Source: Eledone cirrhosa (Eukaryota). Taken from it: 64,000 nucleotides of DNA. The position numbers and the translations under genes were made by a program. Location of the stretch: positions 208,320,001 to 208,384,000 of the forward strand of contig OZ024741.1 of assembly GCA_964016885.1 (NCBI GenBank), written 5' to 3'. Below are positions 4,736 through 63,837 of the stretch, in pieces; position 1 is the stretch's first letter, and each line of letters starts with the position of its first letter. Below the pieces are notes generated by a model. The model ran no database searches. It saw only the letters and a list, made by a program, of their open reading frames with translations, and was not told the DNA's origin.

Positions 4736-5431
4736 AAATATAAGTATGTATACGTACATACATATATGTATACAGACTTACAGTAGTATGTATATATATA
4801 CATACATGCACACATATATATGTGTACGTATGGATTTACCGAACATTTATTATAATGCTCGGTGTGTTTGTAAACAAACATCCCGAATTAAGCCGTACAG
4901 TGTTTAGCTACCATCGTTGCTCTTTTGTTCAACACTGACATACTACTTTACGTCTGTATACATATATGTATGTACGTATACATACTTATATTTAATTAAC
5001 AGCCGTACTAAGAGTGAGAAATGAAATTTCATTTCATTTTTTCCATTGATCGTTTTCGGTGCGCCCAGCCGATTAACTCACTCGATATGCAAATTAGGCT
5101 GCTCAGCCGTTAATATGCATAAGGAAAGTATATACTTTCAGACGTTCAATCATCTGGCAGGAAGGTATACGGTGCTGACGATAGCTAATAAGATTGAAAC
5201 TAGTACATCGTTCCTTTGTCAGTGTTGAACAAAAGGGCAACGATGGTTGCTAAACACTGTACGGCTTAATTCGGGATGTTTGTTTACAAACAAACCGAGT
5301 ATTATAATAAATGTTCGGTAAATCCATACGTACATATATATATGCATGTATGTATATATATACATACTACTGTAAGTCTGTATACATATATGTATGTACG
5401 TATACATACTTATATTTAAGTAACAGCCGTA
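4736..5431 (+). mobile_element. non-coding HHR retrozyme-like element, family A (inverted arm plus ~1.15 units of ~424 bp)
   Basis: 4736-4940 is the reverse complement of 5217-5418; 4941-5007 is repeated at 5365-5431; homologous to the 55.8-58.2 kb array unit. Confidence 0.85.
5169..5211 (+). ncRNA. minimal type-I hammerhead ribozyme
   Basis: acggtg CTGACGA tagctaataagatt GAAAC ta GTA catcgt. Confidence 0.8.
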
Positions 5432-5442: not shown

Positions 5443-5603
5443 GTTATTCCCGGTTGAATAAGTAAGGTACTCAATACATAAAAGTATAAAAGTTTTAATA
5501 TAGAAGAGCTTCTACAGGACTAGAACTGTTTCATTCGTGAGAAAACATCAGCGCTTCCTGGTGATTCTTCACGAATGAATCAGTACTAGTCCTGTAGAAT
5601 CTC

Positions 5604-10261: not shown

Positions 10262-10308
<47 letters not shown>

Positions 10309-10380
10309 AAGAAAAAGGGATGAAATCGAAAATGCAACTGAAGTCTTATTTTTTTTTAAAATATATATATTTATTTGGTT

Positions 10381-10418
10381 CCTTTACCGGTTTCGCAGTT
10401 CTTCTGCTTTTCAAAAGG
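10381..10418 (-). ncRNA. minimal hammerhead ribozyme, U3-A8 variant
   Basis: Minus strand: cctt TTGAAAA gcag-aagaa-ctgc GAAAC cg GTA aagg. Confidence 0.8.
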
Positions 10419-13718: not shown

Positions 13719-13780
13719 TCGACCAACTGAAGGATTTCAAAAACTTAATAAACGGCATCAATAACCACACCCAATTCACA

Positions 13781-14737: not shown

Positions 14738-15231
14738 TATACATTATGTCAACACCACAATATGACATACACACACACACATAACACCTTCTACTTTAGA
14801 AAATAAAAACCCGAACTAAATAAACCTTAAACATACGTTTGCACTGGCAATACAACAGCAAACACGAAAAAGTCAGGAAAATATGTTCATTCAAAAATAT
14901 TCCTACTAAAGGAATCATTTTCCTACACACACACATACACACACACACAATATATATATATATATATATTCTCTTCATCTTAACATGCTAACCATACTCC
15001 CACACACATAACACCCATACACACACATAACAACCCCCACACCTACAACACCCTCCCCATTTCTACTAATAGAACCACTTTCCTACACACATATATATAT
15101 ATACACACACACAAAAAATATATATTCTCTCTATCTAACATACTCGCACACACACACATAACACCCATATATACACACACACAACTCCCTCCCCCATCTC
15201 TACTAATAGAATCATCTTCCAATACACACAT

Positions 15232-15264
<33 letters not shown>

Positions 15265-15778
15265 AGCACACAAATAAACACATATCTTCAGTCTCAATAG
15301 AAAATCTGAACTCTGACACCTGAACTCTGACAGCTGGCCATATTCACTGAACCAGAACATTTTTCCCAATCCCTTTTCCCTTGACCACTATCTCTCCATT
15401 GTCATAACATTCACTATAAAGACTACAGAATAGTTTTCCAAATAAGGGCGCAAAAATGTAATGAAAACTTGTTCACGTGACAGCCAAATTTCATTTATAA
15501 CCAACCAAAAAAAAGCCTTCGTGAGCCTCATTTTTTCAAGTAAAAAGAAATTCAAACACTCATATATGAAAAAACAACCTGTGACAACCCCCCCCCCCTC
15601 TCTTATTTGAAGAACTATTGTTACGCGAACTGGCGCGAAATTTATTATAATTATTGACAAACCAATCAAATTACTTCTCGAAAAACCTGGTTTTCGAGCC
15701 ACTTTTTCCATATAAAACAAGTAACATTTAGAGACCAACCAGATGTGAGAAAAACCACAGACCCTCCATCTCAATTCA

Positions 15779-15816
15779 CCTTTTGAAAAGCAGAAGAACT
15801 GCGAAACCGGTAAAGG
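15779..15816 (+). ncRNA. minimal hammerhead ribozyme, U3-A8 variant
   Basis: cctt TTGAAAA gcag-aagaa-ctgc GAAAC cg GTA aagg; stem III palindrome ACCGGT. Confidence 0.8.
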
Positions 15817-15947
15817 AACCAAATAAATATATATATTTAAAAAAAAAATAAGACTTCAGTTGCATTTTCTATTTCATCCCTTTTTCTTTATACTTCCACT
15901 CGTGTAGGACACCTCGGTTATTTTTCATTTTGTAAAAAAAACCTCAC

Positions 15948-17669: not shown

Positions 17670-19781
17670 CTATCCGTTAGGGTATAGCGTGGGGCTGTAA
17701 TACAGGAAAGTTTTGTGCAATTTATGTTTACAAGCCGAAATTGCCTCAGATTTTTTGTTTAAGATGTGGTCTGTGGCGTAGAGTATTTCCAGGGCCTCAG
17801 CGGCGCAGAGGTCACATGGTCTTTTATTTCCGTTATACGACCTAGCCCTAGCTAGGATCTCCCAGTGTAACTTATATGTGGTGTGGTTGTCTTTTAGACT
17901 CCAGATATAAGCTGAAAGTGACGTCATATTCCTTTTTAGAGGGTAACGAAAAGAATGGGTATGCATGTAAAGACGCTGCTTGAAACTATTGGCGGTTAAC
18001 CTTCTGTAGTCCCTACGGGACGTGGGTGTTACAACTTTACATTTGTAGACAATGTTACTAGAGAGGCATTTCCCGGATAGGGGGAAATCAGCCCGATTCC
18101 TACAATTACAGTTAGTACTAACTACAGGGTTGCACGTGTTCCTACGGCTCTAATTTGAAGCTGTGATGTTATGTGCAAGGTTAGGAGTCGTAGAGTAAGA
18201 AATTTTAATAGTATTTCTATTAAAAATGTTACTATATTTATGTGTAGGGGGAAAATGCTTCGTAATAAGGGAAAGAAAGATCTTAGCTAATGGTCTGGCC
18301 ACCTCCATATTATATGGTGGGTTAAACCAACAAATGCGACGGGATCTATTTCTTCTAGGTCTATTTTCGTACTCTGTATATGCTACCTTATCGACAAATC
18401 CACTTCGAGCAAGAGCTTCATTGTAATAAGTGGAATGGTCGTTGAAAATGCGCTCGTTGGTGGAAAGACGGGAAAGCCTCAACGAAACGTTTTTTACCAG
18501 GTTCTTGGTTATGCTGGCAGGATGGTTGGAATGCTTACTTATGTAATTAAGCGTATCATTCGGCTTTCTATACGGGTAATACAACCCATTCAATAAATTG
18601 AGGGTAACGTCGAGGTAATTAACGACCGAGAGATTGGCCTCAACCTGTATAGAGAGGTTGAAGCCTTTAAAGAAGGCTGTGAGTTCTTTTCTGAACCTGT
18701 CGCAAGCACGAGGTCCGCACTTAGTCATGGTCAAAAGACCATCGTCACGGTACAAACCACCGCCCGCGTTGGGGAATTCGTCCTTGATAGAGAAAAGAAG
18801 GAAAAGGCCAATAAGATCAGTAACCTCCGCAGAGTCACTGGCGCCCATACTCACGTCGAATGGAGTACTATTGGATTTTTTAATCCAAATAGAGTCGTCG
18901 AAATTAATCACCGACTTTCGGGCATTAAGGATGACATCAACTTCGAAATCCTTAACCACTGTGAGTGTTTTAGCGAAATTGATAGCTCTAAGGAGAAGTG
19001 GTAAAGTGATGGAGGAGTAGTAATTGTTGATATCGAATTGGATAAAACGGCAATGTTCCTTGTTACGTATGCCGTTGAACCAATCAATCACCGCGAAAGA
19101 ATTGTTCCACAGTGCGAGAGGGGCCAAACTTCTAATTTCAGGTATAATTGTATCAAGAATCGTTTTACTAAGTCTACCTAAATCGGACTTCGTAGGGTTA
19201 ATAAGCCGAATAGAGGGGTTGTTCGGAAAATTGGATTTATGATCCTTCAGGGTAAAGTGGGGAGAAATAGGGTCCAGATGTTCGGTCCGGTCCAAGATGT
19301 TGAGATCAGATGTGATTTTAAACCCAGCGTCGTTGATTTCATTGATGACGCACCGATTAGTTTTACGGTAATCCTTAGTTACAGCATTATGTAGTAGTTG
19401 ATGGTAATTACTGCGTTCCACTTGATATAGGTTGCCAGTTTTGTCGGAATGGACGTGCACGGCGTTAGAATCCTTAATAGAACGAATTCTATTCTTCAGA
19501 TCTTGCTGGAAGGAATTGCTCCTATTCCGAAATTTGATACTCCGAATGAGTTCCAAGACATCATTTTCGAAGGGTAGCAATGTTGGGTTCCACGGGGGGT
19601 TATTATAGGTTTTAAATCCAAATTTATCCTGTTTGTTGTCTGCTTTTCGCTTATTATCGAAATAAAAGGCACGCCAACGTAACCTTTTAATGAACGCGTC
19701 TGTTTTCTGTATCAGGAGTTTTAGGTATGTTTTCCTGCTTGGTACGGGTATGTTCTTTGTAGAAATATTCAAATGTTGTTT
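17670..19781 (-). pseudogene. Naiad RT-GIY-YIG polyprotein with one in-frame TAG at 18150
   Basis: STKNIPVP..KRLRWRAF, DKT, TLKDHK, QFDINNYY, MGASDSAEVTDL, LYRDDGL; ORF 17670-17966 is in the same frame (CNCR..CL..VYKC, CDLC). Confidence 0.92.
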
Positions 19782-19940
19782 CTGAATGATGAATACAAGT
19801 CAGTAGAGTGCTCAACCGAGGGAGCCAAATAGTAATAATAATAACATTGAAGACTAAAATCCAAAGAGGGCTCGATAAGGATAAATATATATCAAATATA
19901 TAAGAACCGTAGAGTAAATATTTATTAAATAACAGATTAA

Positions 19941-25981: not shown

Positions 25982-28900
25982 AGAGATTACAGTAATCAAA
26001 GTTCAGTTTAAGTCATTTATTTGCTTACAATTGTTTCCTCCAAACCGAGGTTTGGATTCTTCGGAGCAACTATTTATAACATACTTGACCTCCTTTTCAA
26101 CCCAAGAGACACATAAAACATATGCGCATATTGATCAACAGTGGGGTGACATTCATCAAATGATATAGCATGGCAATTTACATATAAAGGTTACAGGATA
26201 AAAATAAAATAAAATAAAAACAAGAGTGAAAATAAGAGTGAAAATAAAGATAAACATGAAGCGTTAGCAGTCTATGAAGATAAAGCAAGAGGAAAGCTTA
26301 GAGTAGTCAGTGTATGAAACAATCTCCCGTGTAGCATGCACGCGTGTCTTATCTATACATGATTAGAGTGCGTCAGAATGATATTTGCAGGGTCAGGCAG
26401 TTGAAGCAGGCAATCGATCTTATTATATAGGCTGAATTATTAAGTCATTTATTCTCATACATCTGTATGATATACAGTCTCGGATGCGGGGAAACACCAA
26501 AATATCAAAAACCATCAACATACTATAAACCTTATTGTATCGTAGGCAAGGTCGTACCACTGTCCTTGCTCACACCACCACTCACATAATCCATGAGACG
26601 CAATATATATATAGAGAACACGCGTCTATCGTGTAATTCGCAGTGGTTCAGCATATAGTCAAGCTATAAACCGTATCCAGTCGGTTCTTAATTAATATAT
26701 CATGCTGTCCAGATTCCGGAAGTGTCTGAATGACTAAGGGGAATTAATGCGTAAGGGGAGGTAACTAGCTAGTTATCTTAGTTACATTACTATGCTAAAC
26801 TACATTAATGGTGATTCAAATACGTGTCTATCATGTGAAGTTATAACTAATATCTAGAGTATGTTACCCATTTATAGGTTAGAGAGTTGTCCATTAAGAA
26901 GTACAAGGGTGTATATATTAGGATGATTACCATCCATTAATTAAGGGGTGTCATATCTGAACGTTCTATAAGAGGAGTCAGACTCTCAAGTCACTGCTCC
27001 ATGCAAATGTAATATAACAATAGGACCTGGTATGGTCCCACTATTATATATGCCACCCGGTAGGCTCCGGGTCATTGCTTGCCTGCATCTCCAGTAAATC
27101 ATCGGTATGGTCCGGAGATCCAATCTCTCATATAAATGCACTAGTCTGGCCATCAAGCAATAGGCAACCCCCGTCTCAAATATAAATCAATTATGTATCA
27201 CATCTCCAAGCTAGAGTGGAGTCTATTAATAGGTATTAAAGGAGTCCACATCAAGATGATTACGTGCATAATTCAATGAACTGATCGCTTAGAGTATATA
27301 ATCACTTAACAATACGATTATCTATCTAATCATCAATCTATCTCTTGGTGGTAATCCATGCACAGGACTATGCTATCGCAACCAGTACCGTGTCCCCAAA
27401 TTTATACTAATCTTATATTTGTGCAATGCAGAATAAGTAGTCCACGGTCGAGATATCAGTATTAGAGGTACAAGGGGGTATTCCCAGGGTAGGTGGTACT
27501 AAAAAGCTGTCAGTATTATCTTTAGAGTATAGAGATGGGTGTGGATGTGAGGTGTAAGGTGTGCTACTGATGTTAATTGCTAGGGGTGGTGCCGGTTCCA
27601 GTCTGACATTATTATATATAGGGTTTAAAGTTTTGGAACGAGTGTCGGAAGCGGTGTTGGCAATTTGCGAACACTTCTGATTTTTTATTAAGGAGATTAT
27701 GTTTAGAGAAGATGATAGTATGGGCCTCTAGTAGACAGAGGTTACAAAATTTATCAGGTGGTTTGTACGATGTTGCACTACCTACCACTTCCCATTTAAG
27801 TGTATATATTTTAGTTTTAGTTTTTAGATAGTGTATGTAGCTAGATAGTGAAGTGGAGTTGGCTAGACTGTGTTTTTGAAAGAGTGGAGGTGCGAATTGT
27901 ATCTAGTTTTGAAGCAGTTAGAAGTGGAGCCTATGTAGGTTTCAGGAGAGCTGTTAGTTGTGACTGTACATGAGTATATGATATCCTTGGTTAAGCATTT
28001 TTTATCTAAAGGGCAGGTTCTACTTGATCTACAGTTACAATTACTCTGGGTGCTAGTCTGCCGGTTACTATGCTGTGTAGAAGTTTGGAGGTTAGCTATA
28101 GGGTTATGGTTATGCGGGTTGTGGTACGCAGCGTTAATGTTTACACTAGTGCTATTACTATTATTTCCATTGATATTACGGTTATTTGTTATAATGTTAC
28201 TTTGACTGTTATTTTGAATGTTATTTTGAAGGTTTATCGACCGTTGTGATTTAGTTTGTTGGAAGTAAGAATTAATTTTTCTTTTATTTGTACTAGCTGT
28301 GGTATGCTAAGTTAGGCGTAGTAGAGTATGAGATCTTAATAGTGTTTTTGTTTAAAAGGCCGTGGTACCTGTGGCCGGATGGGAAGTGTTTACCTAGTAG
28401 TGAGAAGAAAGCCCTAGGAAGGTTGGTAGAGACGTTTAAATTGAAAGGAGGGTTGAAAAATGTATTATTTCTTCTTCTATTTCTGTTTTTTATGTCTGCT
28501 GATTTGTTTCCTTTAATGTTCCTATGGTCATTTCTGTGGTGCGGGTTACTCTTGTTGTTACAATCCCTATTAGTGTGTGTGCAGTTGCTATTCCTATTAT
28601 TAAATTTTCCCATGGACATGTTGTGTGAAATGATGTTGTAGCTATGTGTTTTTGTAGGTAGGAACTCTATCCCTGTATTATGGCCTGATCTAGCTAATGC
28701 CTGATTATAATACTGCGAGTTATTGTTAAATGTGTTTATGTCATAGGATAGATTAGAGATTCTATTAGATACTCCCTTAGAGGTAGAGTTCAATATAGAT
28801 TTAGGGTGGTTAGACTTGGTATCTACGTAGATGAGTTTTTCATTAGGTTTGTGGAAAGGTGCATATATCATTGAGTCTAAGTAGAGTGTGGCGTCTAGGA

Positions 28901-29297
28901 AGTTGACGTTTTTGGTGTTTTTGTCCATGGTAATACTAAGGTTAAAGTTTTTGAATGTTTTGTGCAATAGTTTTCTAGTCCTTTCTATATTGAATTTTTT
29001 ATAGTCTATAAGTAGAAGTGCATCGTCGCGATACAAACCACCGCTGAGGTACGGAAGTTCCCTGTGGATTAGGTTAAGTAAGTATAGGCCAACCAAATCA
29101 GTGACCTGCGCCGAGTCACTAGACCCCATAGTAATGTCGAAGTTGTTTTGCGTATCCTTGCGGGTCCATAATTGGTCCTCAAAGGTGATTATTGTTTTAC
29201 GGGCCGCAAGTATGACATCAATCTGGGGTCTAGTCAAGTCACTATTGTCCATGGCCATTATAAGTGCCTTATTTAGTAGGATAGGGGATAAAAGCAA
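25982..29297 (-). mobile_element. 5'-truncated Naiad PLE with 1.6-kb 3' UTR
   Basis: MGSSDSAQVTDLVG, LYRDDAL, NFLDATL, FFNPPF; frameshifted GIY-YIG about 27620-28050 (CNCRSSRTCPL..YIGSTS); terminal HHR. Confidence 0.9.
26021..26069 (-). ncRNA. type-I hammerhead ribozyme, U4C core
   Basis: Minus strand: ttgct CCGAAGA a-tccaaacc-tc-ggtttgga-g GAAAC aatt GTA agcaa, then AATAAA. Confidence 0.8.
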
Positions 29298-29475
29298 AGA
29301 AGGGGTGAGAAGGAAGAAAAGAAAAGATAGCCAAGAAGGGGGAAGGAAGGAAGAAGACGAAGAAATAGAAGAGGAATGAGGGAGAAGAAGGGGATATATG
29401 TATTGGTTTTGTGGGTCTAGATATAAGAGGGTATAAAGTCTAAGTATATGCAGTTTGTCAGCTGGTAGTAAGAGG

Positions 29476-31832
29476 TTAAGGGTTCGATTTGTAGTGCGAA
29501 AATTTCTCTTTGAGTCTATGGTTACAATAAATTGATCTCTCAATTTTATTGTTGAGTAACCTATTCTTCGAACTTAAGATGTGGAACAGCTCAAGGTCGC
29601 ATAATCGACAGCTTCTCATACCACTCCGATATGGGGGCGCGTTCGATAATTTGTTCCACTTCAGGGTGTATTGATGGTTACTTTCCCTCAGTTGCCAGGT
29701 CTTGTTTGCAAGGGTAGTTACATAACGGTGCTGGGAATGTTTCATTGCGTAACGGTGTGTATACCAACGAGCTTTAAAAGTATTCCCAGTCGCTCCGATG
29801 TAATACCATTTCTGGTTGTCTGATTCCACTGTGCATTGGTAAACCAGGTTAGACTGCATACATTCATTTTGTAATGGACAGGTTTCAAGTAGGTGGCAGT
29901 TACATTTCTTGTTATGGGCAACTTTGGCATTATTTGTGGGCTGCGATGCCTGAACAAGTGTGTTACGTTTTGTTTGCCAATAAGCGGGTGGTTGTGTATT
30001 AGATATTCTGTTGTGTTCGGTGGTAATTGTATTGTTATTGTTGTAAATTTGTGTTTGGGTGTTGTTATGTATCTTTTTAGCGTTAAGCATCTTAATGTGT
30101 GCTTCTATATTTGGTGCCGTGGAGTAGGATAGTCTAATAGATTTAGTGTTAAGGATTTTGCTGTATCTATGTGAATCTGGAAAGTGCCTATTTATTATTC
30201 TAAAGAAAGTAGAGGGTAGGTTAGTACTAATAGAGGTGTTAAATATGGGGTTATACCAAATATATTTTCTACTGCGTGACTTGTTTGATTTCGATGTTGT
30301 ATTTCTATTTGCCGTATACTTTGCAGTTCTATGCGTAAATGTGTCTATGCGTGTGTTTCTGGAGTTTGTGTTATGCGTGTTCGTGTGTGCTTCACAGAGG
30401 CTTTCATCTATATATTCTACTCTATCTCAGTGGCCTGCCTTGTCTAATGCGGTATTGTAGTATTCTGCATGTTCTTCGAAGATTTGCCGGTTAGATGAGA
30501 GGCGGGAGATCCTAAGGGATATGCTGCGTGGAATGGATTTAATTATTGATAGTGGGTGGTTTGAGTTACAGTTGATGTATGCTAAGTTTTCATTAATCTT
30601 GTGAAAAGGTCTTATAAGTCCCGTATTTAGGTTAAGCGTCACATCTAGAAAGTTAACTGTTTTAGTGCTATACTCATACGTTATGCTAAGGTCTAGTTTT
30701 CCGAGAGTCTTTCTAATATTCTTACGGAGTCTTTCTATGCTCTGGTTATTTAGGTTCTTAACTAGGAGAAGGGCGTCGTCTCTGTAGATTCCACCGTGAA
30801 GGTCGCTAAACTCACTTTGTAAACCATGGGCTATGTAAATACCTACTAAGTCTGTGACTTGAGCCGAGTCGTTAGCCCCCATCGTGATGTCAAAGTTATT
30901 TAATCTATCCTTACGTTCCCAATAGGCGTTTTCAAATTTAATTATTGTTTTCCTAGCAGCTAATATGATTTTTATCTCGTCGTCTGTTATGTCAGAATTG
31001 GCTTTGGCGAATGCTAAGGCTTTATCCAAGGTGTTGGGGGATATAGATGAGTAATAATCGTTAATGTCAAATTGTATAAATTTAGATACTTCTTTGTTAG
31101 CTATATTGTTAAACCATTTATTGTTTCTGTAGCGTTACCCCATAATTTAATCACTAGTTTATTCTTCATTTGTGCTATCACTCTGTCTAATATATGTTTA
31201 CTAATTTTCCCGATGTCCGATTTGGATGGGCATATAAGTCTAATAGTGGGGTTATAATCAAAATTTACCTTGTGGTCTTTGAGGTTAAATGTGGGGGTAC
31301 ATGGCTTAAGTGGCTCCGTTCTATCGTCTATTCCTAGGTGTTTGACTATATTGTGTGCCTCGTTGTTGATGTTTATCAGTGCCGCCTCATTTGTTTTTTT
31401 GTATTTCCTATGTAATTCTTTCCGTATGAAGCTGTTGTATGTATTAACATCCATCGTATACACATTTGATGTTTTGTCCGCTTTGACAATAATTCCATTG
31501 GTGGTTCGCAGCTTTTTGATGAATGTATTTATGTCATTCTGGAGTTTATTATTCCTCTGCTTTTTGAATTTGATATTTATAATCATCTTCAGTAAGTCCT
31601 GTTCAAAGGCATCCAGTTGAGGGTTGGTAGGTGGGTTTTTACACGATTTGAAGCCGTATGTTTCTTTGTTATATTCCACGGTGCGACCATTACGTCCTTT
31701 GTCGAAATGGAAAGTTTTCCATCTAACTCTGCGTATAAAGTCATTTGTTCGCTGTATCATCCCGAGAGTATAATCCTTTCTCCGAGGTATAGGATTGTTC
31801 TTTAGGGACATACCTATGTAATGCTTTTCCAT
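29476..31832 (-). pseudogene. full-length but frameshifted Naiad RT-GIY-YIG polyprotein
   Basis: ORF pieces 31101-31832 ([24 protein letters not shown]), 30427-31029 (IYRDD), 29476-30090 (CNC..CPL..YIGATGNTFK..CRLC). Confidence 0.92.
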
Positions 31833-31841
31833 AGTAGTACC

Positions 31842-32410
<569 letters not shown>

Positions 32411-32891: not shown

Positions 32892-34019
32892 CATGTCCTC
32901 AATGTGCAATATGCTGTGGAAAGCACCTAGGTGGCTGGGTTAATGCAGAATGTAGGCGCGCAGAGCTGGAAATATTCATTAGTTAAGCAAAACAAGACCA
33001 CAAATTTCACAAGGAAGACATTATTAAAAGATTGTCAACATATTTTAGTTTGATGTAAGGAATGTAGAGAATAATAATAATAATATTAATAATAATAATG
33101 TCCGTTTACAATTGTTTCGCTACTACATATAATATTTCTGGATCAATTGATTATATATCATTATTGATCTGGTTCAGTTGAAAATAATTAACATAATTAA
33201 AGATAGAGCGGCTCATCGGAACTTTCAAGGAATATAAATTAAAATAAGGAAAGTATGTTACATAATGTAATGTTCCATATATTGGTATTTCACTATGGTG
33301 TCCTGGGTGTATCAATTGTCTGCCATAATCAAGCAGTATTCTTCTGTCGAGGCTGCATTGTGTGAGACCTTCCTATGGGTAACAAGATAGCCGCCAATGG
33401 ACATATTTACCTTACTAATTAGACCGTCGTTTCAGGGGATGTAACTCCTCGAGAGATTAGAAATTGTGGGCAGTTTATAGTTAAGTGCTATTTTTTTTAT
33501 TTTTTAATTGAGAGACAATGTAGGGGAGGTAACTTATAATTATATAAGTTAGTTATAACTATTTAACTTATTAACTACAAGTAAAAATGGGGCTAGATGA
33601 CTATGTTGTGTCAAATATTCTGTTGGCGAAGGAATTAGCCCTTCGATGTTGACAGCTAATAATTACCTCCGTTCTATCGTTAATCGGTAGAGGTCGTGAT
33701 AGAGTTATGTAATATGCTTCCGTAATACAGAGATCACAAGATTTTCTTCGTCCATTAAACGGTTGGGCCCTAGCTAAGATATCCAATGTTGGTTAATTTA
33801 AGGTTTTTAATGAGCCTAGCTTGAGATGTCGAACATCTGTTGTTAGAGTCTCGGAAGGAAAAAGAGTGCGCGTTATAGCGTACCTTAAAAGGGTTAGAGG
33901 TAGACCCGATATAGGAGCTGGTAGTTGAAGCAGTTTTAACCGTGCACATATAGACTATGTTGGGTGTCAGGCAGTGTCCATTTAGTGGGCATGCATTAGG
34001 GTAACGGCAGTTGCAGTTT

Positions 34020-36176
34020 AAAGATAGCCACCTCTTACATGTTATGTCTGACGAAACTAAAAATCTATACACCATGACTCCTGAAACTTACAACTCTTTC
34101 CTTCTTAAGAAACTTAATAAAAACTTCAAAAACTATACCCTCCAGTGTAAACGTACTTAACCGAAAAGTCCATGCTTTGGTTAAGGACTTGCATCTGGAT
34201 AGATTTACCCACCCTTATGTACCAACAACCCCAAGGTTCTCTCTCAAGGATCATAAGCCAAACTTTATAGAGAACCCATCTATTAGACTTATAAGCTCAA
34301 CCACATCCGACCTGGGTCGTATCAGTAAGAACATCCTTGATAGGATCATCCCTGGGCTACGGGATGATATCACCTACAAGTTGTGGTCCAACACCGGCCA
34401 AGTCATCAGATGGTTCTCCGATCTAAGGTCCAAGCAATCTATGAGGTTCATCCAATTTGACATTGACAGCTATTATGCTTCAATAACCCAGGAACTGCTC
34501 AACAAAGCATTAACCCTAGCCAGCACCAACTCGGATATAACCAATAATGAGATTGACATCATACTTATGGCTAGGCAGACGATCATTGAATTCAACGGAG
34601 CACTCTGGACTAGAAAGACAGAACAGACAACTTTGACATCACGATGGGCTCAAGTGACTCTGCGCAAATCACCGATTTAGTTGGAATTTACCTATTACAT
34701 AACATCAGAGCCGAAATCCAACCCTTGCAAGGCGGATTATACTGGGACGACGCCCTATTTGCAGTCCACAATAGCCCTAATCGGGGCATTGATTTGCTCA
34801 AAAAACAATTACATAGATTCTTTAAAAATAACGGTCTCTCTATCACCATCGAGCCGAACCATAAAGTAGTCAACTTCCTAGACGTCACCCTGGATCTTAA
34901 CAATAACCTGTATTACCCTTACCATAAACCAGGTGAAATACTTACATATATTAGCCCACACTCTAACCACCCACCGGCAGTCATCAGAGCAGTAATCAAA
35001 TCTATCTCGTATAGGATCTCCATGCTATCAGCAAATGAGGAGATATTTATAAACCATGCACCATATTATAAGGCTCTTTCTGAATCTTGTTATGAACAAT
35101 CCATTTACTACATACCTAAATGCCATAACACAGCAATTCACCATAATAAACTTAACACTAGAACTAGAAATACCTTAGCATATAGCCAGATTCGCCGGAA
35201 TTTTAGCAGCTACAGCACTTATACAGGGAACTTTAATGGTGGCAGCAGCCTGCTCCCCATCCAAGTAGCAAACTAAAAATCAACCCTAGAATAGGAATGA
35301 GCAAATAACAAATGCCCAATAATAATAACCCTAGGAAGGCCCCTACCAACTTCACTAGGACCCCTAGAAGGAATAGGCCTAGAAATATCACCTGGCTTAA
35401 CCCCCCATTCTCATCTAATCTAGCCACTAATATTCCTAAACGCTTTTTCTCTATCCTATCTAACCCCCCCCCCCCCCAACCATAGATATTACAAACTCTT
35501 TAATAAAAATAACAATAAAATCTCATTCTCCACAACACCTAACCTAGCTAGCCACATCGCATTCAGTAACCATCATAAACTAAGACAGTATAACTCCCAT
35601 ACCGCGGTACCACCACCCCTATCAAATACACCACGCCACTACACCAATACTTACTCTAGTAGCACACCTCCCCCATCTAATCCTCTTAACACTGACCAAC
35701 CGCTTAGGTTAAACTACCCTACTCTCACTAGCCGCAGAAGCAACTGCAACTGCCGTTATCCTAATGCATGCCCACTAAATGGACACTGCCTGACACCCAA
35801 CATAGTTTATAGGTGCACGGTTAAAACTGCTTCGAATACCACCTCCTATATCGGGTCTACCTCTAACCCTTTTAAGGTACGCTATAACGCGCACTCTTTT
35901 TCCTTCCGAGACCCTAACAACAGATGTTCGACATCTCTAGCTAGTCTCATTAAAAACCTTAAATTAACCAACATTGAACACTCACTAACATGTGATATCT
36001 TAGCTAGGGCCCAACCGTTCAATGGACGAAGAAAATCTTGTGATCTCTGTATTACGGAAGCATATTACATAACTCTATCACGACCTCTACTGATTAACGA
36101 TAGAACGGAGGTAACTATTAGCTGTCAACATCGAAGGGCTAATTCCTTCGCCAACAGAATATTTGACGCAACATAG
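34020..36176 (+). pseudogene. 5'-truncated, frameshifted Naiad RT-GIY-YIG
   Basis: SLKDHKPNF, IQFDIDSYY, MGSSDSAQITDLVG, LYWDD, WLNPPF, CNCRYPNACPL..YIGSTSNPFK..CDLC. Confidence 0.9.
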
Positions 36177-36554
36177 TCATCTAGCCCCATTTTTACTTGT
36201 AGTTAATAAGTTAAATAGTTATGACTAACTTATATAATTATAAGTTACCTTCCCTTACATTGTCTCTCAATTAAAAAATTTAAAAATTAGCACTTAACTA
36301 TAAACTATCCACAATTTCTAATCTCTCGAGGAGTTATTTCCCATGAAACCACGCTCTAATTAGTAAGGTAAATATGTCCATTGGCGGCCATCTTGTTACC
36401 CATAGGCAGATCTCACACAATGCAGCCTCGACAGAAGAATACTGCTTGATTATGGCAGACAATTGATACACCCAGGACACCATAGTGAAATACCAGTATA
36501 TGGACATTACATTATGTAACATTCTTTCCTTATTTTAATTTATATTCCTTTGAA

Positions 36555-36672
36555 GTTCCGATGAGCCGCTCTATCTTTAATTATGTTAATTATTTTGAAC
36601 TGAACCAGATCAAAATGATATATAATCATTTGATCCAGAAATATTATATTGAGTAGCGAAACAATTGTAAAC
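36555..36672 (+). ncRNA. HHR with U4C core and ~80-nt stem II insertion (inverse copy 33104-33222)
   Basis: gtt CCGATGA gc-cgctc...gagta-gc GAAAC aatt GTA aac. Confidence 0.65.
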
Positions 36673-37412
36673 GGACATTATTATTATTAATATTATTATT
36701 ATTATTCTCTACATTCCTTACATCAAACTAAAATATGTTGACAATCTTTTAATAATGTCTTCCTTGTGAAATTTGTGGTCTTGTTTTTCTTAACTAATGA
36801 ATATATATATATATATATGTATATATATAAATCTGTAATTTTCTGTATGTATGTGTATATGTGTGTGGACAATTTCTAATGAGGGCTCATATATTCTAAA
36901 CCATTCATGCGATTTCTTTGAAATTTTATACAGAGCTTCTCTTTGCACAAAATCTGGACACGATCTACAAAGGCTTTCAAAAATCGATATTGGGGCCTTA
37001 GGAAACATTAAAAAATGTTGGTTATTTGTGTGAATTTTCGTGATTAAGTAAGACAAGAGTTATCTTTCGTAATTCCGCTCATTCGGATTTTAATTTACTC
37101 TTTGTACTTGAAAGAAAGAGACTAACAATATCATTTTGTATATTTCACAACCAGCAATTTCTAACAGATTACTAAGTTAAGTTATAGATTTGACATTGTA
37201 TAATTTATCGTTTCAAGCTTGATGTTCATACATTAAATGATGTCATAATTTTTACAATATTATGCTTAAATTTATCTAAAATTATTTCGCTGGAATAGTG
37301 CCTAAGGCTTTCATGTTTACATAAAGTACGTTTTTCTTCTATGTATTCAAATTTACTTTGTTTATTTTAATGAGCTACATCGAAAGCTACTTGAACTGGC
37401 CAAAGGATGGGT

Positions 37413-43520: not shown

Positions 43521-43604
43521 TGGGATAACCAATCATGGGTGCCGAAAGATACAGGATTCTGGTCCGAGTGCTTGTAATAGACTACTATTATTTCTATAAT
43601 AATA

Positions 43605-44202
43605 TGGTGGATTGGCAGTATCGGTAGAGGGTTTGACGCCATGCTTTCCAGCATAGTTACGTCCCTTTACGATCTGAGTTCAAATCCCGCCGAGGTTTAC
43701 TTTGCCTTTCATCCTTACGGGGTCGATAAAATAAAGTACCAGTAATGCACTGGATAATTGCTGGCCTTGTGCCTAAAGTAGAAACAATTATTTCTATAAT
43801 AATAGGGCGGTGGATTGGCAGTATCAGTAGAGGGTCGGACGCCATTCTTTGACGCATAGAGTTACGCCCTTTTCCATTCTGAGTTCAAATCCTGTCGAGG
43901 TTAACTTTGCCTTTCATCCTTACGGGGTCGATAAAATAAAGTACCAGTAATGCACCGTGTAATTGCTGGCCTTGTGCCAAAAGTAGAAACAATTATTTCT
44001 ATAATAATAGGGAGTGGATTGGCAGTATTGGTAGAGCGTTGATCAACATGCTTCGTGGAATAGAGTTATGGCCCTTTATGGTCTGAGTTCAAATCCCGCC
44101 GAGGTTAAATTTGCCTTTCATCCTTACGGGGTCGATAAAATAAAGTACCAGTAATGTACTGGGTAATTGCTGGCCTTGTGCCAAAAGTAGAAACAATTAT
44201 TT
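43605..44202 (+). mobile_element. head-to-tail trimer of the tRNA/Nin SINE (~200-bp period)
   Basis: Three full copies joined by aattatttctataataatag. Confidence 0.9.
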
Positions 44203-44995
44203 CAGTACTGGATATAGTGTTATCTAATTTGCCTTGAAAATAGAGTTAAGTAATTTTAGTCCCCCGTCATAGCTGGCTCCAGCTGACAATACCTGGAATG
44301 ACCCCCCCCCCCCACCCCCACTCCTATCGAAGGTTACTGAATTCACACTGACTTCACACTTAACTTCGAAATACTAAAAAGGAGGAATGAAGCACGCACC
44401 TAACCCCATTAATTAAAACTGCACAGAACTGAAAAACAGTTACTGGACCTGGGAAAAGGTCCATGACAATTTTTGCAACAATTTTTCCATAGAGAGTATA
44501 ATGGACTAAAGAAGAGAAGAAAAACTACGCTAAAATAACTATGCACCATGCGATGATGTTAGACTAGGCGGTGACGTCAATCTATCCATATCGAGCCATT
44601 TTTAAACTTGGATTGATAAAAAAAAGAGATGGACAATGCTAGAAAGCCCATGATAATACGTCTACTCAATCAGGATAGAGATTGGAACTCAACAACAAAT
44701 ACATCCTTCCAACTAAAAAAGCATTTCGGCTTTATGCCAAACTTAGAAATACACATTTTTCTTTAAACATATAAGGGGATGTTTTTAGAGAGAAGATAAA
44801 AGGAGAATAGTAAGGTTGGATAGGGTATGTTCGCCTAGTGATGGGTCAGGCTGTATCTCGACAGGGATGTTAACAGCTGCCATATTGTTTTAGAGATTGT
44901 TTTATTTATTTTATTTCTGTGTGGGAGTAATGTTGATTAGAGTATTTGATTTCACAATGAAACGACTAACCTGGTTCCTTACCACATTTCCTCCG

Positions 44996-52237: not shown

Positions 52238-52800
52238 ACTCATTCTAGTGAAGTGATATGGTTTAAAAGAAGCTGTTTCCATAATTGCGAATATTATTAA
52301 TATTCGAAAAACTCAGATTACATTTATTGTATTCAGCCGTGTAAGCGATAACTTTTTTCATTTATGTGAATATGGCAAAGCCGGCCATTAATCACTCATA
52401 TACAGGAAACTGACTGGCCAGTCCGATGATATGCAAATCTGGCTGATCAGTGGATCTGCTAATATGCAGATCTGGCTGATCAGCCAGTCTGCTAATATGC
52501 AAATCAGGCCGGTCATTCACTGCATATTTTCGAAAATATATATTTTCACTAGCTCTGACAGTTGGCAGGTGAAGAGTGAATTGTACTGATGAAGGGTATT
52601 CACCCAGAAACATTAGTGTCTGAAGTTCTGTTTACATGCCAACACAAGAGCAAGAATGAGGGACTCATTCTACTGACATTGGCTTTAAAAATGAGGCTTG
52701 TTTTCATAAATACAAACGAATCCAATGTTATTATAATATTCGAAAAACTCTTATTACATTTATTGTATTCAGCCATGTAGAGTGATAACTTTTTTATTTA
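52234..52800 (+). mobile_element. retrozyme-like element (~426-bp unit, 1.3 copies) with triplicated octamer module
   Basis: 52234-52365 matches 52660-52800; 33-bp repeats with ATGCA(A/G)AT at 52431, 52464, 52497; HHR. Confidence 0.8.
52578..52628 (+). ncRNA. type-I hammerhead ribozyme
   Basis: gaattgta CTGATGA a-gggt-attc-accc-a GAAAC at-ta-gt GTC tgaagttc. Confidence 0.8.
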
Positions 52801-52884: not shown

Positions 52885-54239
52885 TAGAAGTGGTATTTAA
52901 TTTGTTGGAAGTCCAACAAATATAAATGTTTATAACTGATTTAGAGTACTCAACAGTTTCCTGGAGTAAATATTCAATGATATTAAATAAATGGAAACTA
53001 TATTTATAAAACCATATTTATTTTATTATATATATTTCTAGGGCAACCAAGACAACATTGGTACGCTTTCATCAGATAAAATACAAAATTTGTTTTATAA
53101 ATAGAGACATACCCATGAAAATCATACATTATCGGTTGGAAATTCACTGGATAGTGGAAATATATTAGGGATTATTCAAACTTATATGTGAATATGCAAA
53201 TGAATATGTAAATAATTGAAAAACAACCGTTTATTTAAATGACACTGGAGAAAGAGAGAGAGAAAAGAGAGAGTGAGAGAGATAGAGAGAAGAAATTAAC
53301 AATAGGATGTATAAAACTCATATAACGTTAATTTGGGGGAATATATTCTAAATATATATCTAATGGTACGTGTATTTACGATTAATTAGTTGTTAAAATT
53401 CTTTTCTAATATAATATTTATTGTTATAAGTAGATAGAAAAATAAATAGATAGAAGAATAAATAGATAGAAGAATAGATAGAAAAATAAATAAATAAATA
53501 AATAAAAAGATAAATGGATAAATAGATAAATAAATGAATAGATGGGTATATCGTGTTATAGATAATTGTTTTAATGAGTTATGAGGGATATTGGTTTTGT
53601 ATTTAATGGAAGTAAATATTAAGTTAAATTAAATTAAGTTAACTGAGTTAATAAGAATATTTATATATTTATATTTATATATTTTAAAATGGGAAGATAC
53701 GGAAAAACCTCCCGTTTTGTTTATTTATTCGTTAGTATGAGACTAATTTGTCAAAATAAGTATAAATGTTGAAAGATATATTTAGCCAGAATTAGTTAGT
53801 GGTTATAAATCTAATAAAAGATATTGAAAAAATATTTTAAATATTCGGGAAAATTTTTTTAAAATATAATTTATAAGAGATAAATAATAATAAAAAAAAA
53901 AAAAAGTAATTTTTAAAAATAGATAAAAAATTAAAGAAATAATTAAAAATTATTAAGATTAAAATTACAATTAAAATTTAAATTTAAATTAAAATTAAAA
54001 TAAAAAAAATTAGAATTATATATGTATATATTTTAAGAAACTTTAAGAAGTGAAATTATAGCAAATGTTATAGATATGATTTAGAGATATCAATATATTA
54101 AAACCAACTGGATAAGATTGCTATGGAAATAAGTAGAAATATTATAAGTGTAATTATAATTTATATATAGTTCTAAATGTTGAATTCAGGCAATGTCTAC
54201 AAGAACTAAATAAATTCGTCCTTATATTAATAGTCTTAC

Positions 54240-55420
54240 ATTTAAGTATAAAAAAAATGATGATATGCTGCTTTTAATTGAAAATCATAGTAATTGTTAA
54301 ATTAATAGAAAAAGAAAATCCATAATACAATTCTTCAATAGCTACAACCTTAAGTTAGAAATAGAGAATAACTATAAAATTGTTAACTTTTTAGACGTAA
54401 CATTAAACCTTAACACAGTGCTCTACTATCCATTCCATAAAACTAATGAGAATCTAAACTATGTAAGTTTTAACTCTAATCATCCTAGATCTATCAAGAA
54501 CACTATTGTTAATTCTATCCAACAACGTATTTCACGCATCTCCGTTAATAAAAACATTTTTGACGATAAGGCAGAATATTATAATGAAACTTTAAATAGA
54601 GCAGGCTATATAAATAAGATTAAATACATCGACAACAGTGGTAAGGCAAATAACCCTACTATTAATTATAATTACAATAAAAAATCTAAAGCTAACAGAA
54701 GAAATAGAATTAGAAATATTATTTGGTACTCACCCCCATTCTCGTTAAGCGTTAAAACACCTTTAGCAAAGCTATTCTTTAAAGCTCTAGATAAATGTGT
54801 TCCTTTAGGAACACATTTATCTAGAGCTTTAAAGATACCCCTCAATCTTTAACAGACATACTATAAAACTATCTTATTCTACTGCTATGAACATAACACA
54901 GAATATAAATAGAATCAATAATAGAAATTTAAACCATAACCAAAATAGCAGTAATATCTCGAGCAATATCCAACATAATAGTACCGTTCTGAATAACAAC
55001 TCCGTAAAATGTAACTGTAGAATTAAATTAAACTGTCCTTTACAAAATAAGTGTTTAGATAGGGAGGTGGTCTATAAATGTACAGTTAAAACCAATGATA
55101 ATATATTTAACTATGTAGGTGCAACTTTTACGGAATTTAAAAGTCGCTGGAATAATCACAAATGCTCTTTCCAAAGATTTGATAAAATATCTTCAACTTC
55201 TCTTTCAAACCTGATATGGAACTTAAAATGCATGAATATAGACTATTCTTTAACTTGGGAAATAGTTTCAAAACACAGCTTTATCTAGATTTTGCAAATT
55301 GTGTGTTGAGGAAATTTTTTTCATACTTAAATGTAAGAACTCTATTAATATAAGGACAAATTTATTTAGTTCTTGTAGTTATCGCCTGAATTCAACATTT
55401 AGAACTATATATAAATTATA
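54240..55420 (+). pseudogene. Naiad RT C-terminus + GIY-YIG (frameshifted)
   Basis: VNFLDVTL, YPFHK..SNHP, IWYSPPF, CNCRIKLNCPL..YVGATFTEFKSRWNNH. Confidence 0.9.
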
Positions 55421-55926
55421 ATTACACTTATAATATTTCTACTTTTTTCCATAACAATCTTATCCACTTGGTATATTGATATCTCTAAATCCTATCTATA
55501 ACATTTGCTATAATTTCACTTCTTAAAGTTTCTTAAAATATATACATATATAATTCTAATTTTTTAAATTTTAAATTTAATTTTAATTTTAATTTTCTTT
55601 TTAATTTAAATTGTAATTTTAATCTTAATAATTTTTAATTATTTCTTTAATTTTTTATCTATTTTTAAAAATTACTTCTTTTTTTTTAAATTACTTTTCT
55701 TTTTTTAAATTACATCTCTTATAAATTATTTTTTTAAAAAGTTTTCCCGAACTTTAAAATATTTTTTCAATATCTTTTATTAGATTAGTTGAAAAAAATG
55801 AAAACGAAATTTCATTTCTCACTCTTAGTATGGCACTTACTTAAATGTAAGTATGTATGTATACGTACATACATATATGTAACTGATGCGTGCATATATG
55901 TATGTGTACCTGTATGCATATGTGTA

Positions 55927-55977
<51 letters not shown>

Positions 55978-56133
55978 GCATGCTACTGTACGTCTGTATA
56001 CATATATGTATGTACGTATACATACATACTTACATTTAAGTAAGTGCCATACTAAGAGTGAGAAATGAAATTTCGTTTTCATTTTTTTCAACTTATCGTT
56101 TTCGGTATGCCTGACCGATTTAACTCACTCAAT

Positions 56134-56186
56134 ATGCAAATTAGGCTGCTCAGCCGTTAATTTTCATAAGGAAAGTATATACTTTC
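56134..56186 (+). promoter_or_regulatory. octamer + inverted octamer-like site + TATA-centred palindrome (repeated in every unit)
   Basis: ATGCAAAT-ta-ggctgctcagcc-gttaATTTTCAT-aag-GAAAGTATATACTTTC; promoter role is inferred. Confidence 0.5.
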
Positions 56187-56215
56187 GAACGTTCAACTAT
56201 CTGGCAGATGGGTAA

Positions 56216-56258
56216 ACGGTGCTGATGATAGCTAACAAGCTTGAAACTAGTACATCGT
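56216..56258 (+). ncRNA. minimal type-I hammerhead ribozyme (unit 1)
   Basis: acggtg CTGATGA t-agct-aaca-agct-t GAAAC ta GTA catcgt; stem III palindrome ACTAGT. Confidence 0.88.
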
Positions 56259-56436
56259 TCCTGTGTCAGTGTTGAACAAAAAGGTGACGTGGTTGCCTTA
56301 ACACCGTATGGCATAAATTCAGGCTGTTCGCTTTGTTGACAAACAAACGAACAAAGCGGCCGGCGTTATAATAAACGTCGGCTAAACTGATGCGTGCATA
56401 TATGTATGTGTACCTGTATGCATATGTGTATATATG

Positions 56437-56478
<42 letters not shown>

Positions 56479-56721
56479 TATATGCATGCTACTGTACGTC
56501 TGTATACATATATGTATGTACGTATACATACATACTTACATTTAAGTAAGTGCCATACTAAGAGTGAGAAATGAAATTTCGTTTTCATTTTTTTCAACTT
56601 ATCGTTTTCGGTATGCCTGACCGATTTAACTCACTCAATATGCAAATTAGGCTGCTCAGCCGTTAATTTTCATAAGGAAAGTATATACTTTCGAACGTTC
56701 AACTATCTGGCAGATGGGTAA

Positions 56722-56764
56722 ACGGTGCTGATGATAGCTAACAAGCTTGAAACTAGTACATCGT
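56722..56764 (+). ncRNA. minimal type-I hammerhead ribozyme (unit 2)
   Basis: Identical to 56216-56258. Confidence 0.88.
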
Positions 56765-56936
56765 TCCTGTGTCAGTGTTGAACAAAAAGGTGACGTGGTT
56801 GCCTTAACACCGTATGGCATAAATTCAGGCTGTTCGCTTTGTTGACAAACAAACGAACAAAGCGGCCGGCGTTATAATAAACGTCGGCTAAACTGATGCG
56901 TGCATATATGTATGTGTACCTGTATGCATATGTGTA

Positions 56937-57008
<72 letters not shown>

Positions 57009-57243
57009 TGCTACTGTACGTCTGTATACATATATGTATGTACGTATACATACATACTTACATTTAAGTAAGTGCCATACTAAGAGTGAGAAATGAAATT
57101 TCGTTTTCATTTTTTTCATCTTATCGTTTTCGGTATGCCTGACCGATTTAACTCACTCAATATGCAAATTAGGCTGCTCAGCCGTTAATTTTCATAAGGA
57201 AAGTATATACTTTCGAACGTTCAACTATCTGGCAGATGGGTAA

Positions 57244-57286
57244 ACGGTGCTGATGATAGCTAACAAGCTTGAAACTAGTACATCGT
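57244..57286 (+). ncRNA. minimal type-I hammerhead ribozyme (unit 3)
   Basis: Identical to 56216-56258. Confidence 0.88.
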
Positions 57287-57458
57287 TCCTGTGTCAGTGT
57301 TGAACAAAAAGGTGACGTGGTTGCCTTAACACCGTATGGCATAAATTCAGGCTGTTCGCTTTGTTGACAAACAAACGAACAAAGCGGCCGGCGTTATAAT
57401 AAACGTCGGCTAAACTGATGCGTGCATATATGTATGTGTACCTGTATGCATATGTGTA

Positions 57459-57528
<70 letters not shown>

Positions 57529-57763
57529 TGCTACTGTACGTCTGTATACATATATGTATGTACGTATACATACATACTTACATTTAAGTAAGTGCCATAC
57601 TAAGAGTGAGAAATGAAATTTCGTTTTCATTTTTTTCAACTTATCGTTTTCGGTATGCCTGACCGATTTAACTCACTCAATATGCAAATTAGGCTGCTCA
57701 GCCGTTAATTTTCATAAGGAAAGTATATACTTTCGAACGTTCAACTATCTGGCAGATGGGTAA

Positions 57764-57806
57764 ACGGTGCTGATGATAGCTAACAAGCTTGAAACTAGTA
57801 CATCGT
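57764..57806 (+). ncRNA. minimal type-I hammerhead ribozyme (unit 4)
   Basis: Identical to 56216-56258. Confidence 0.88.
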
Positions 57807-57978
57807 TCCTGTGTCAGTGTTGAACAAAAAGGTGACGTGGTTGCCTTAACACCGTATGGCATAAATTCAGGCTGTTCGCTTTGTTGACAAACAAACGAAC
57901 AAAGCGGCCGGCGTTATAATAAACGTCGGCTAAACTGATGCGTGCATATATGTATGTGTACCTGTATGCATATGTGTA

Positions 57979-58028
<50 letters not shown>

Positions 58029-58086
58029 TGCATGCTACTGTACGTCTGTATACATATATGTATGTGTACCTGTATGCATATGTGTA

Positions 58087-58136
<50 letters not shown>

Positions 58137-58930
58137 TGCATGCTACTGTACGTCTGTATACATATATGTATGTACGTATACATACATACTTACATTTTAT
58201 TAGATTTATAACCACTAAATAATTCTGGCTAAATATATATTTCAACGTATATACTTATTTTCTCAAAATAGTCTCATACTAACGAATAAATAAACAAAAC
58301 TGGAGGTTTTTCCGTATCTTCCCATTTTAAAATATATAAATATAAATATATAAATATTCTTATTAACTCAGTTAACTTAATTTAATTTAACTTAATATTT
58401 ACTTCCATTAAATACAAAACCATTATCCCTCATCACTCATTAAAACAATTATCTATAACACGATATACCCATCTATTCATTTATTTATCTATTTATCCAT
58501 TTATTTATTTATTTATTTATTTATTTTTCTATCTATTCTTCTATCTATTTATTCTTCTATCTATTTATTTTTCTATCTACTTATAACAGTAAATATTATA
58601 TTAGAAAAGGATTTTAACAACTAATTAATCGTAAATACACGTACCATTAGATATATATTTAGAATATATTCCCCCAAATTAACGTTATATGAGTTTTATT
58701 CATACTATTGTTAATTTCTTCTCTCTATCACTCTCGTAATATTTATTTTTTCTCTCTCTTTCTTCAGTGCCATTTAAATAAACGGTTGTTTTTCAATTAT
58801 TTACATATTCATTTGCATATTCACACATAAGTTTGAATAATCCCTAATATATTTCCACTATCCAGTGAATTTCCAACCGATAACGTATGATTTTCATGGG
58901 TATGTTTCTATTTATAAAACAAAATTTGTA

Positions 58931-63127: not shown

Positions 63128-63837
63128 CAAATAAAAACAAATAACGAAACGAAATTAAATTTCGTTTCGTTTGTAACTCACTTTTGTATGACTGACGACC
63201 AGTATGACTCTAAAAACCGGTTTGTCTGTGTGTTTACATACAGAATAGCTGAACACTCACAGTAAAGTGTCCAGTGAAAAACTCGGTACATCTACATATG
63301 TACACGTGTGTGTATTCATATGCATACTAGTATTTCAGTATACATATGTGGATGTACATTTTTAACTTAATTGTTTAAGCGTCAGTCATACAAAAGTGAG
63401 TTACAAACGAAACGAAATTTAATTTCGTTTCGTTATTTGTTTTTATCGTCTCCGCTGAACCGGTACGTAGTCACGCTCTATGCAAATTAGTCTGCCCACT
63501 ACTAATTTTCATAGAAAAAGCATATAACGATATGTGCTTTTACGATTCTCTAGAAAGGCTGGAGGATAGGTAAATATTGCTGATGAGATGTAACAACATC
63601 GAAACTAGTCCAATATTCCTGTCTGGCTTTCTGGAGAATAGAGGAAAGGTGTTTCCTCGAAAACCAGTATGACTCTAAAAACCGGTTTGTCTGTGTGTTT
63701 ACATACAGAATAGCTGAACACTCACAGTAAAGTGTCCAGTGAAAAACTCGGTACATCTACATATGTACACGTGTGTGTATTCATATGCATACTAGTATTT
63801 CAGTATACATATGTGGATGTACATTTTTAACTTAATT

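Follow-up and report, generated by a model that had tools for sequence, protein, structure and literature searches.

The closest described relatives of the repeats analysed here are the non-LTR retrozymes of metazoans. In the accessible text of a 2020 review (Cervera and de la Pena 2020, PMC7229834), these are short non-coding tandem repeats with a type I hammerhead ribozyme and a self-paired monomer of ~170–400 nt, which co-exist with Penelope-like elements; an example from mussel is described there. The same text denies internal promoters to retrozymes in general, and read-through is assumed because no promoter was seen. Internal promoters are already known, according to the accessible parts of the respective sources, in newt satellite 2, in schistosome repeats and in one plant retrozyme. 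We analysed a 64-kb stretch of the genome of Eledone cirrhosa (the window), which contains an array of hammerhead-bearing units that resembles the metazoan retrozymes in the ribozyme type, the non-coding tandem repeats, the self-paired monomer and the co-existing Penelope-like elements; the units are 307–522 nt long across the families found, partly beyond the range given for metazoan retrozymes. Judged from the sequence, these non-autonomous units carry motifs of host snRNA-gene promoters upstream of the ribozyme, and the motifs likely form a working promoter, most probably one used by Pol II (we estimate the probability of this reading at about 0.6).

The retrozyme array and its flanks

The segment at 56093–56258 is unit 1 of a four-unit hammerhead array within an insertion of 2,408 bp (55787–58194). 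The features of the locus are as follows.

54301..55288, plus strand: broken coding remnant, likely a Penelope-like RT tail with a GIY-YIG endonuclease; the array landed in its 3′ flank
55775..55786, plus strand: left target-site duplication, 12 bp
55787..58194, plus strand: retrozyme insertion of family A, a 5′ inverted piece followed by four hammerhead-bearing tandem units
55787..55880, minus strand: truncated inverted unit piece at the 5′ end of the array, a Penelope-like insertion pattern
56082..56088, plus strand: T7 run, ~45 nt upstream of the octamer; the equivalent run is at +383 from the preceding predicted start
56133..56144, plus strand: 12-mer TATGCAAATTAG with the octamer; the same element is found in host U6, U6atac, MRP and tRNA-Sec promoters
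56150..56153, plus strand: TCAG at −56, the position of the host U1/U2/U4/U5 proximal element YCAGT
56176..56181, plus strand: TATA box (−30), within the palindrome 56171–56186
56206, plus strand: predicted transcription start, the A after TGGC in TGGCAG, placed by host promoter geometry
56215..56259, plus strand: type I hammerhead, core CTGATGA at 56222–56228, GAAA at 56243–56246, short stem III
56639..56765, plus strand: cassette and hammerhead of unit 2
57161..57287, plus strand: cassette and hammerhead of unit 3
57681..57807, plus strand: cassette and hammerhead of unit 4
58195..58206, plus strand: right target-site duplication, 12 bp

By its testable sequence features the array is classed as a non-LTR retrozyme. 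Its periods are 506, 522 and 520 nt, and the units vary in (TA)n length. An empty target site is intact at 53808–53819, within an inverted copy of the flank (52967–54258). The inner boundary of the inverted piece at the 5′ end is approximate because the unit is palindromic there; 5′ inversion is presented as a Penelope-like insertion pattern in the accessible text of PMC8557442. The coding frames of at least 90 aa that overlap the array are microsatellite-derived only. No Pfam match was obtained for the remnant at 54301–55288 itself, and GIY-YIG matches were found for two of the five window proteins scanned, in other frames. Large inverted duplications accompany several further broken RT/GIY-YIG-like frames, at 10305–15892, 17670–19799, 27612–31943 and 32972–36804, as is typical of Penelope-like insertions. 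A 204-bp repeat, which we take to be SINE-like, is present in three tandem copies at 43587–44203 and is dispersed through the window.

By inspection, the unit 1 hammerhead folds with its stem I formed by residues 56215–56221 and 56253–56259, within an extended stem I at ~56201–56270, and cleavage is predicted to occur after A56252. The Rfam search gave no hammerhead match at the gathering score; below it, a weak match to HH9 covered 56208–56270 (E=0.053). The near-unit-length fold has an energy of −187 kcal/mol and a z of −12, a value inflated by (TA)n. Run X1, the kind of which is unrecorded, gave 8 variable sites in 366 nt, none of them within the predicted promoter elements, which are too few to interpret. 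The single raw RNA run had 0 reads on the stretch, and runs X4 and X6 had 0 and 2 contigs, respectively, counts that speak neither for nor against expression.

The cassette and the promoters of host small-RNA genes

Upstream of the ribozyme, the units carry a cassette composed, in order, of the 12-mer TATGSWAATNAG, a YCAS motif 16 nt on, TATA mostly at 42–43 nt and a purine ~30 nt past TATA. Among 13 family representatives, YCAS is at +16 from the octamer in 10 and TATA at +40 to +45 in 12. The 12-mer is found in families A, B, C, E, F, G and H, but not in J and K. The YCAG-to-TATA distance is 26–27 nt in A, C, E, G, H, J and K, and 24–29 nt in copies of B and F. The A of the GCAG motif is exactly 30 nt past TATA in families A, E, G and H (56206 in window unit 1). 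The initial annotation had located the octamer ATGCAAAT at 5087, 52497, 56134 and 63480 and in each later unit of the array. These positions were confirmed, those in the later units being 56640, 57162 and 57682. The TGG(C)AG motif, the three TATA hairpins and the CTGANGA core are also where they had been placed, the core being 88, 89 and 100 nt past the octamer. In the window there are 14 octamer matches, compared with 5.8 ± 2.2 in shuffles; four of the 14 are copies within one array.

For comparison, the genome's own small-RNA genes were fetched and their upstream DNA was read. The 12-mer, which presumably resembles the extended POU consensus, is found 46–48 nt upstream of TATA in seven host U6, U6atac, MRP and tRNA-Sec promoters (octamer-to-TATA distances of 46, 47, 48, 47, 47, 48 and 48 nt). 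Of the 12 top U6 loci, seven (L031, L032 and the C19 cluster type) have ATGC(A/T)AAT(T/G)AG between −76 and −78, with TATA at −30, and in the remaining five the element is displaced to −270 by an insertion. Five of the ten fetched copies of the C19 U6 cluster (L037, L038, L040–L042) have a ~190-nt insertion, presumably SINE-like, between octamer and TATA, and these copies are likely silenced. None of 14 further dispersed U6 matches has the 12-mer at the promoter position, and they look like retrocopies. The many dispersed promoterless U6/U6atac copies (L071–L084, L088–L094), several of them with altered 5′ ends or adjoining (TA)n, are likewise likely retrocopies; one (L091) adjoins an inverted family B cassette. 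The 12-mer is present in one of eight U6atac loci (the best-scoring, L087), in the single MRP locus (1/1) and, at −79, in the two top-scoring of six fetched loci for tRNA-Sec, which was checked after the rule was formed.

The proximal 12-mer is absent upstream of U1 (14/14 loci), U2 (all 8 loci examined of the 16 fetched) and U5 (all 8 examined of the 10 fetched), and U4 has a partial match at −109, not −77, in three of the four loci examined. In all 14 distinct promoters of U1, U2 and U5 genes, YCART is located between −55 and −58, with a TATA-like box near −30, and YCAG is at −57 or −58 in all four U4 loci examined. In the layout of the host Pol II snRNA genes, YCAGT at about −56 is followed by a TATA-like box at about −30, and AATTA is often present near −90. 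In the loci used to define both layouts (L031–L036, L043–L062, L085–L087, L095, L206–L213, L286–L293), the two classes share a distal TTACCTCCCTTG-like element in many cases; it lies between −257 and −288 in 11 of 22 host loci. In the gene for RNase P RNA (L096:1210–1500), the octamer is missing, AAATCAGT is at ~−63 and there are two distal elements. This brings the gene nearer to the Pol II class, although it has a terminal T-run; it fits neither class cleanly and was excluded from both promoter models.

When the cassette is set against these two layouts, it appears to mix them, with the octamer of Pol III genes placed on a Pol II core, an arrangement seen in none of the host genes examined; the 12-mer at the cassette position is found in no host Pol II gene examined. 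The spacing between YCAS and TATA reads as U1-type, 4–5 nt below the U6-type spacing. The initial annotation had proposed an internal snRNA-type promoter. The proposal gained from the comparison, as host small-RNA genes carry the same 12-mer with TATA and the same YCAG-to-TATA spacing, but the octamer had to be given up as the common denominator, as it is missing from J and K.

A different assignment would make the cassette a U6-type Pol III promoter, from which either a short RNA running from ~56206 to the T-run or, by leaky read-through, the full monomer would be made. The proximal 12-mer is indeed confined to Pol III-type host genes, the Pol II element is poorly matched in A, C and G, and schistosome hammerhead repeats are reported, in the accessible text of PMC2220036, to have a Pol III promoter. 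However, the octamer-to-TATA distance in the cassette (40–45 nt, mostly 42–43) is outside the 46–48 nt of all seven host genes, and J and K do without the 12-mer. Moreover, T runs come before the next promoter (T7 at +383 in A, T5 at +356 in C), so that an RNA ending there would be without a promoter and unable to regenerate arrays; T5 is at +138 in K, and J has T4 runs only. We consider this assignment unlikely. Use by Pol II is preferred because of the U1-type spacing, the newt precedent and the T5–T7 runs ahead of the next promoter, which would end a Pol III RNA before the full monomer. Polymerase choice depends on PSE sequence in Drosophila and on PSE–TATA distance in plants (PMC9652321, accessible text).

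The fit to the host Pol II genes was analysed with a two-block model, in which the predicted site was ranked among 920 positions. The ranks are 1 for B, J and K, 4 for H, 5 for E, 8 for F, 13 for F1, 21–22 for A, 52 for C and 185 for G. The match to YCAGT near −56 is good in B, H, J and K, moderate in E and F, and weak in A, C and G; in family A, it is the flanks of TCAG that fit the model weakly. The scores of A (2.0), C (−1.5) and G (−5.3) do not exceed the range of U6-type genes (−1.7 to 5.5) and fall far short of the training genes (11.6–21.8), which counts against the Pol II reading. This weak core fit in the most abundant octamer families would also be expected if the motifs were relics of a captured snRNA upstream region, or factor sites that open chromatin without a defined start, and the multiplied octamer-like repeats of family B are enhancer-like. 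Such a reading is nevertheless very improbable, since the three-element spacing and the purine ~30 nt past TATA are kept in diverged families and a dead relic should lose them.

A model of the distal element was built after the motif had been noticed, and the site that it matches doubles as the 3′ strand of stem I. With these limits, the match in J scores 17.5 (host range 15.7–23.1) and is at +55, equivalent to −256 from the start of the next unit; the scores are 15.7 in H, ~5–11 in E and 1–10 in K, and no match was found in A, B, C, F and G. Where unit length could be estimated, the TTACCTCCCTTG match in J, H, E and K is at ~−250 to −275 from the next start.

Families, copy number and RNA structure across the genome

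Outside the array, the window contains three further cassettes.

5086..5212, plus strand: subfamily A2 cassette and hammerhead, in an insertion at ~4712–5443 with an inverted 5′ piece
52429..52640, plus strand: family B copy containing a 33-bp octamer-like repeat (2.5 copies), the proximal octamer at 52497, TATA, and the core at 52586
63479..63617, plus strand: family C cassette and hammerhead, core at 63580, unit ~465 nt

Upstream of the family B cassette, a module of the 33-bp octamer-like sequence and GATCAG is repeated (52429–52509), and L136 has about five copies of it. GGCTGATCAGCC had been said to follow the octamer in two families; this does not hold for the 52497 family, where it follows octamer-like sites in the 33-bp upstream repeats and not the proximal octamer. 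The window also has type I hammerhead families that are free of the cassette (at 58937, 53075, 32780, 21810, 21423, 2998 and 62931), several of them in inverted pairs, and these are likely the ends of Penelope-like elements. When membership in such elements was checked through coding matches, few non-cassette hammerhead families had one within 1.2 kb. The hammerhead at 58937 has ATTTGCAT 126 nt upstream.

The association of octamer and hammerhead was borne out genome-wide (3.0 Gb): a pattern of the octamer, a gap of 72–100 nt and the hammerhead core gave 35,663 matches compared with 25 for the reversed pattern, a control that also destroys the ribozyme core, and the count is dominated by high-copy families. 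Long hammerhead arrays also occur elsewhere in the genome. The genome encodes hemocyanin domains of mollusc type as well (39 matches), for which hemocyanins are the best PDB hits. Families were sorted from the matches listed, all at the start of contig C1, and from fetched loci, so the family list is incomplete. Unit lengths are 424–522 nt in A, 465 in C, 311 in J and 307–316 in K. Among the matches listed, the octamer families A, B, C and G are related. The remainder of the units had been described as not alignable by eye, but it is alignable in part: A and C align at 66% over 199 nt, A and G at 66% over 347 nt, and B and G at 69% over 122 nt. Because of these partial alignments the four share ancestry and are therefore not independent cases. 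E/H and F have little in common with A, B, C or G outside the cassette; they too have the T before and the AG after the octamer, which match the host element though they are outside the search pattern. A frequent match class (L097 type) was dropped, as it has no TATA and looks like LINE coding sequence, as were loci L111 and L132–L135, which look like chance matches. In subfamily A3 (L006, L011), 8 nt are missing between TATA and TGGCAG, yet there are several copies; a start set by TATA would shift to 8 nt upstream of the ribozyme core. One family C retrozyme copy (L053:181) lies beside the U1 gene cluster.

Two search patterns free of the octamer gave 10,573 matches (compared with 724) and 12,798 (compared with 225), and yielded families J and K, which have AAACCAGT or ATAATCAG with TATAAG 26–27 nt downstream. 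Both have the YCAG/TATA core and no octamer, so the octamer is not shared by all families; their match to the core is partly circular because both were found by a YCAS/TATA pattern. In 1.3 Mb of sequence, biased towards the cassette searches, the octamer and the core pattern, respectively, were counted in 0 and 34 of 41 copies of J, 31 and 32 of 34 of A, 19 and 19 of 19 of C, 8 and 10 of 11 of B, 0 and 9 of 10 of K, and 9 and 7 of 9 of E. The same sequence has 97 hammerhead-like motifs outside the cassette families, of which one has the octamer and eight the core pattern (core background 1.7%). The octamer as an attribute of hammerheads in general was rejected: among the 47 hammerhead-like motifs present in 63 arbitrarily placed stretches of 10 kb (630 kb), only three have it exactly and in the expected band, and two of these are family A motifs. 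The cassette is specific among hammerhead-like motifs, with family A accounting for 3 of the 47 in this 630 kb. This architecture is likely a borrowed snRNA-type promoter, of which the octamer would be one optional module.

The elements may instead be kept only as RNA structure or by descent, the units being transcribed by read-through from outside promoters, as in the 2020 review. The octamer and TATA are both within predicted hairpins, TGGCAG also belongs to stem I, the near-unit-length fold has the (TA)n-inflated z of −12 given above, and several families are related. The initial annotation had described a TATA hairpin with compensatory changes; the hairpins are present, but they do not form a single covarying stem, as TATA is at the apex of a palindrome in A, in the 5′ arm in C and in the loop in E and H. 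As RNA structure, the TATA palindrome is incidental. Most predicted folds also have the octamer paired, but the pairing bases differ between families and include mismatches. In the predicted folds, hairpin registers and partners shift while sequence and spacing appear steadier across families, and pairing leaves unexplained both the identity with the host promoter 12-mer and the U1-type spacing in barely alignable lineages. Maintenance by RNA structure or descent is quite improbable in our estimate.

Octamer mutants bear on the same question. They are not depleted among A and C copies (157 + 261 = 418 variants of octamer base 4, compared with 450 of a spacer C; 23,740 intact), a result that weighs against the promoter reading and would also suit maintenance by RNA structure or descent. 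The counts fit neutral decay after insertion, and neither show nor exclude selection on source copies. C-to-T octamer variants occur in several arrays; C-to-A, a change that would make the stem perfect in A and C, is in no array among the matches listed (100 of 157).

Proposed mechanism and relation to known systems

Retrotransposition normally leaves an upstream promoter behind. In the mechanism that we propose for the retrozyme units, the 12-mer, the YCAG element and the TATA box would be occupied by a POU-type factor, SNAPc and TBP, respectively, and transcription would start 16 nt upstream of the ribozyme core, so that the ribozyme would free a capped leader of 47 nt. The polymerase would then cross the next unit, promoter included, as far as the next ribozyme, and the resulting monomer, once circularised, would serve a Penelope-like reverse transcriptase as the template for a new multimer. 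Because the tandem/circular layout would place the upstream promoter inside the RNA, each new array would inherit it. The steps of cleavage, circularisation and Penelope-like mobilisation follow the model in the accessible text of PMC7229834.

A wider version of this idea is that animal retrozymes generally parasitise the host snRNA transcription machinery, with a species-specific snRNA promoter inside each circle and a chimeric one here; in the ~310-nt families, stem I would double as the distal enhancer of the next unit and promoter geometry would set the unit length. We put this forward tentatively and regard it as doubtful. If true, it would explain the constitutive high expression of retrozymes and their species-specific sequences. 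To the account of how that expression arises in animal retrozymes, the present analysis adds a start site and three promoter elements predicted to the base pair and matched to the host's own snRNA genes. Tens of thousands of hammerhead repeats would, on this evidence, likely drive their own transcription, in a class of animal repeats mostly thought not to. The mechanism also illustrates a route by which an upstream promoter could travel by retrotransposition via circular RNA. A by-product is the layout of mollusc U6-type and U1-type promoters, which is useful for guide-RNA expression.

Described snRNA promoters resemble those found here in having a proximal element in the −40 to −70 zone, an octamer and TATA at ~−30. 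In the present genome, by contrast, TATA is shared by the two classes, the Pol III genes have their octamer directly next to the proximal zone, and features of both classes are combined in the cassette. Newt satellite 2 reportedly has both an octamer and a PSE. Like the present repeats, it is arranged in tandem and carries a hammerhead, and the accessible text of PMC2220036 credits it (Coats, Zhang and Epstein 1994) with an internal promoter of the snRNA type that Pol II uses. Unlike it, the present repeats are from a mollusc and have a TATA box and an octamer ~72 nt upstream of the predicted start; their motifs match the host's own divergent snRNA promoters, and they comprise several lineages, two families of which lack the octamer. 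The schistosome Sm-alpha hammerhead repeats also have an internal promoter, but it is reported, in the accessible text, as Pol III and SINE-like. The plant LTR retrozyme NbRZ1 (PMC12029980) has a promoter of its own that is likely used by Pol II; transcription starts upstream of the ribozyme, at a site that 5′ RACE misses because of self-cleavage. It differs in being an LTR element with a type III hammerhead, and snRNA-type elements are not noted in the accessible text. Among the matches listed from mostly open literature, no title or abstract dealt with a mollusc retrozyme promoter or a cephalopod snRNA promoter. The prediction of an snRNA-type promoter would extend to a second phylum after newts, and what is new here is a retrozyme cassette that, by sequence comparison, matches the host's own small-RNA gene promoters.
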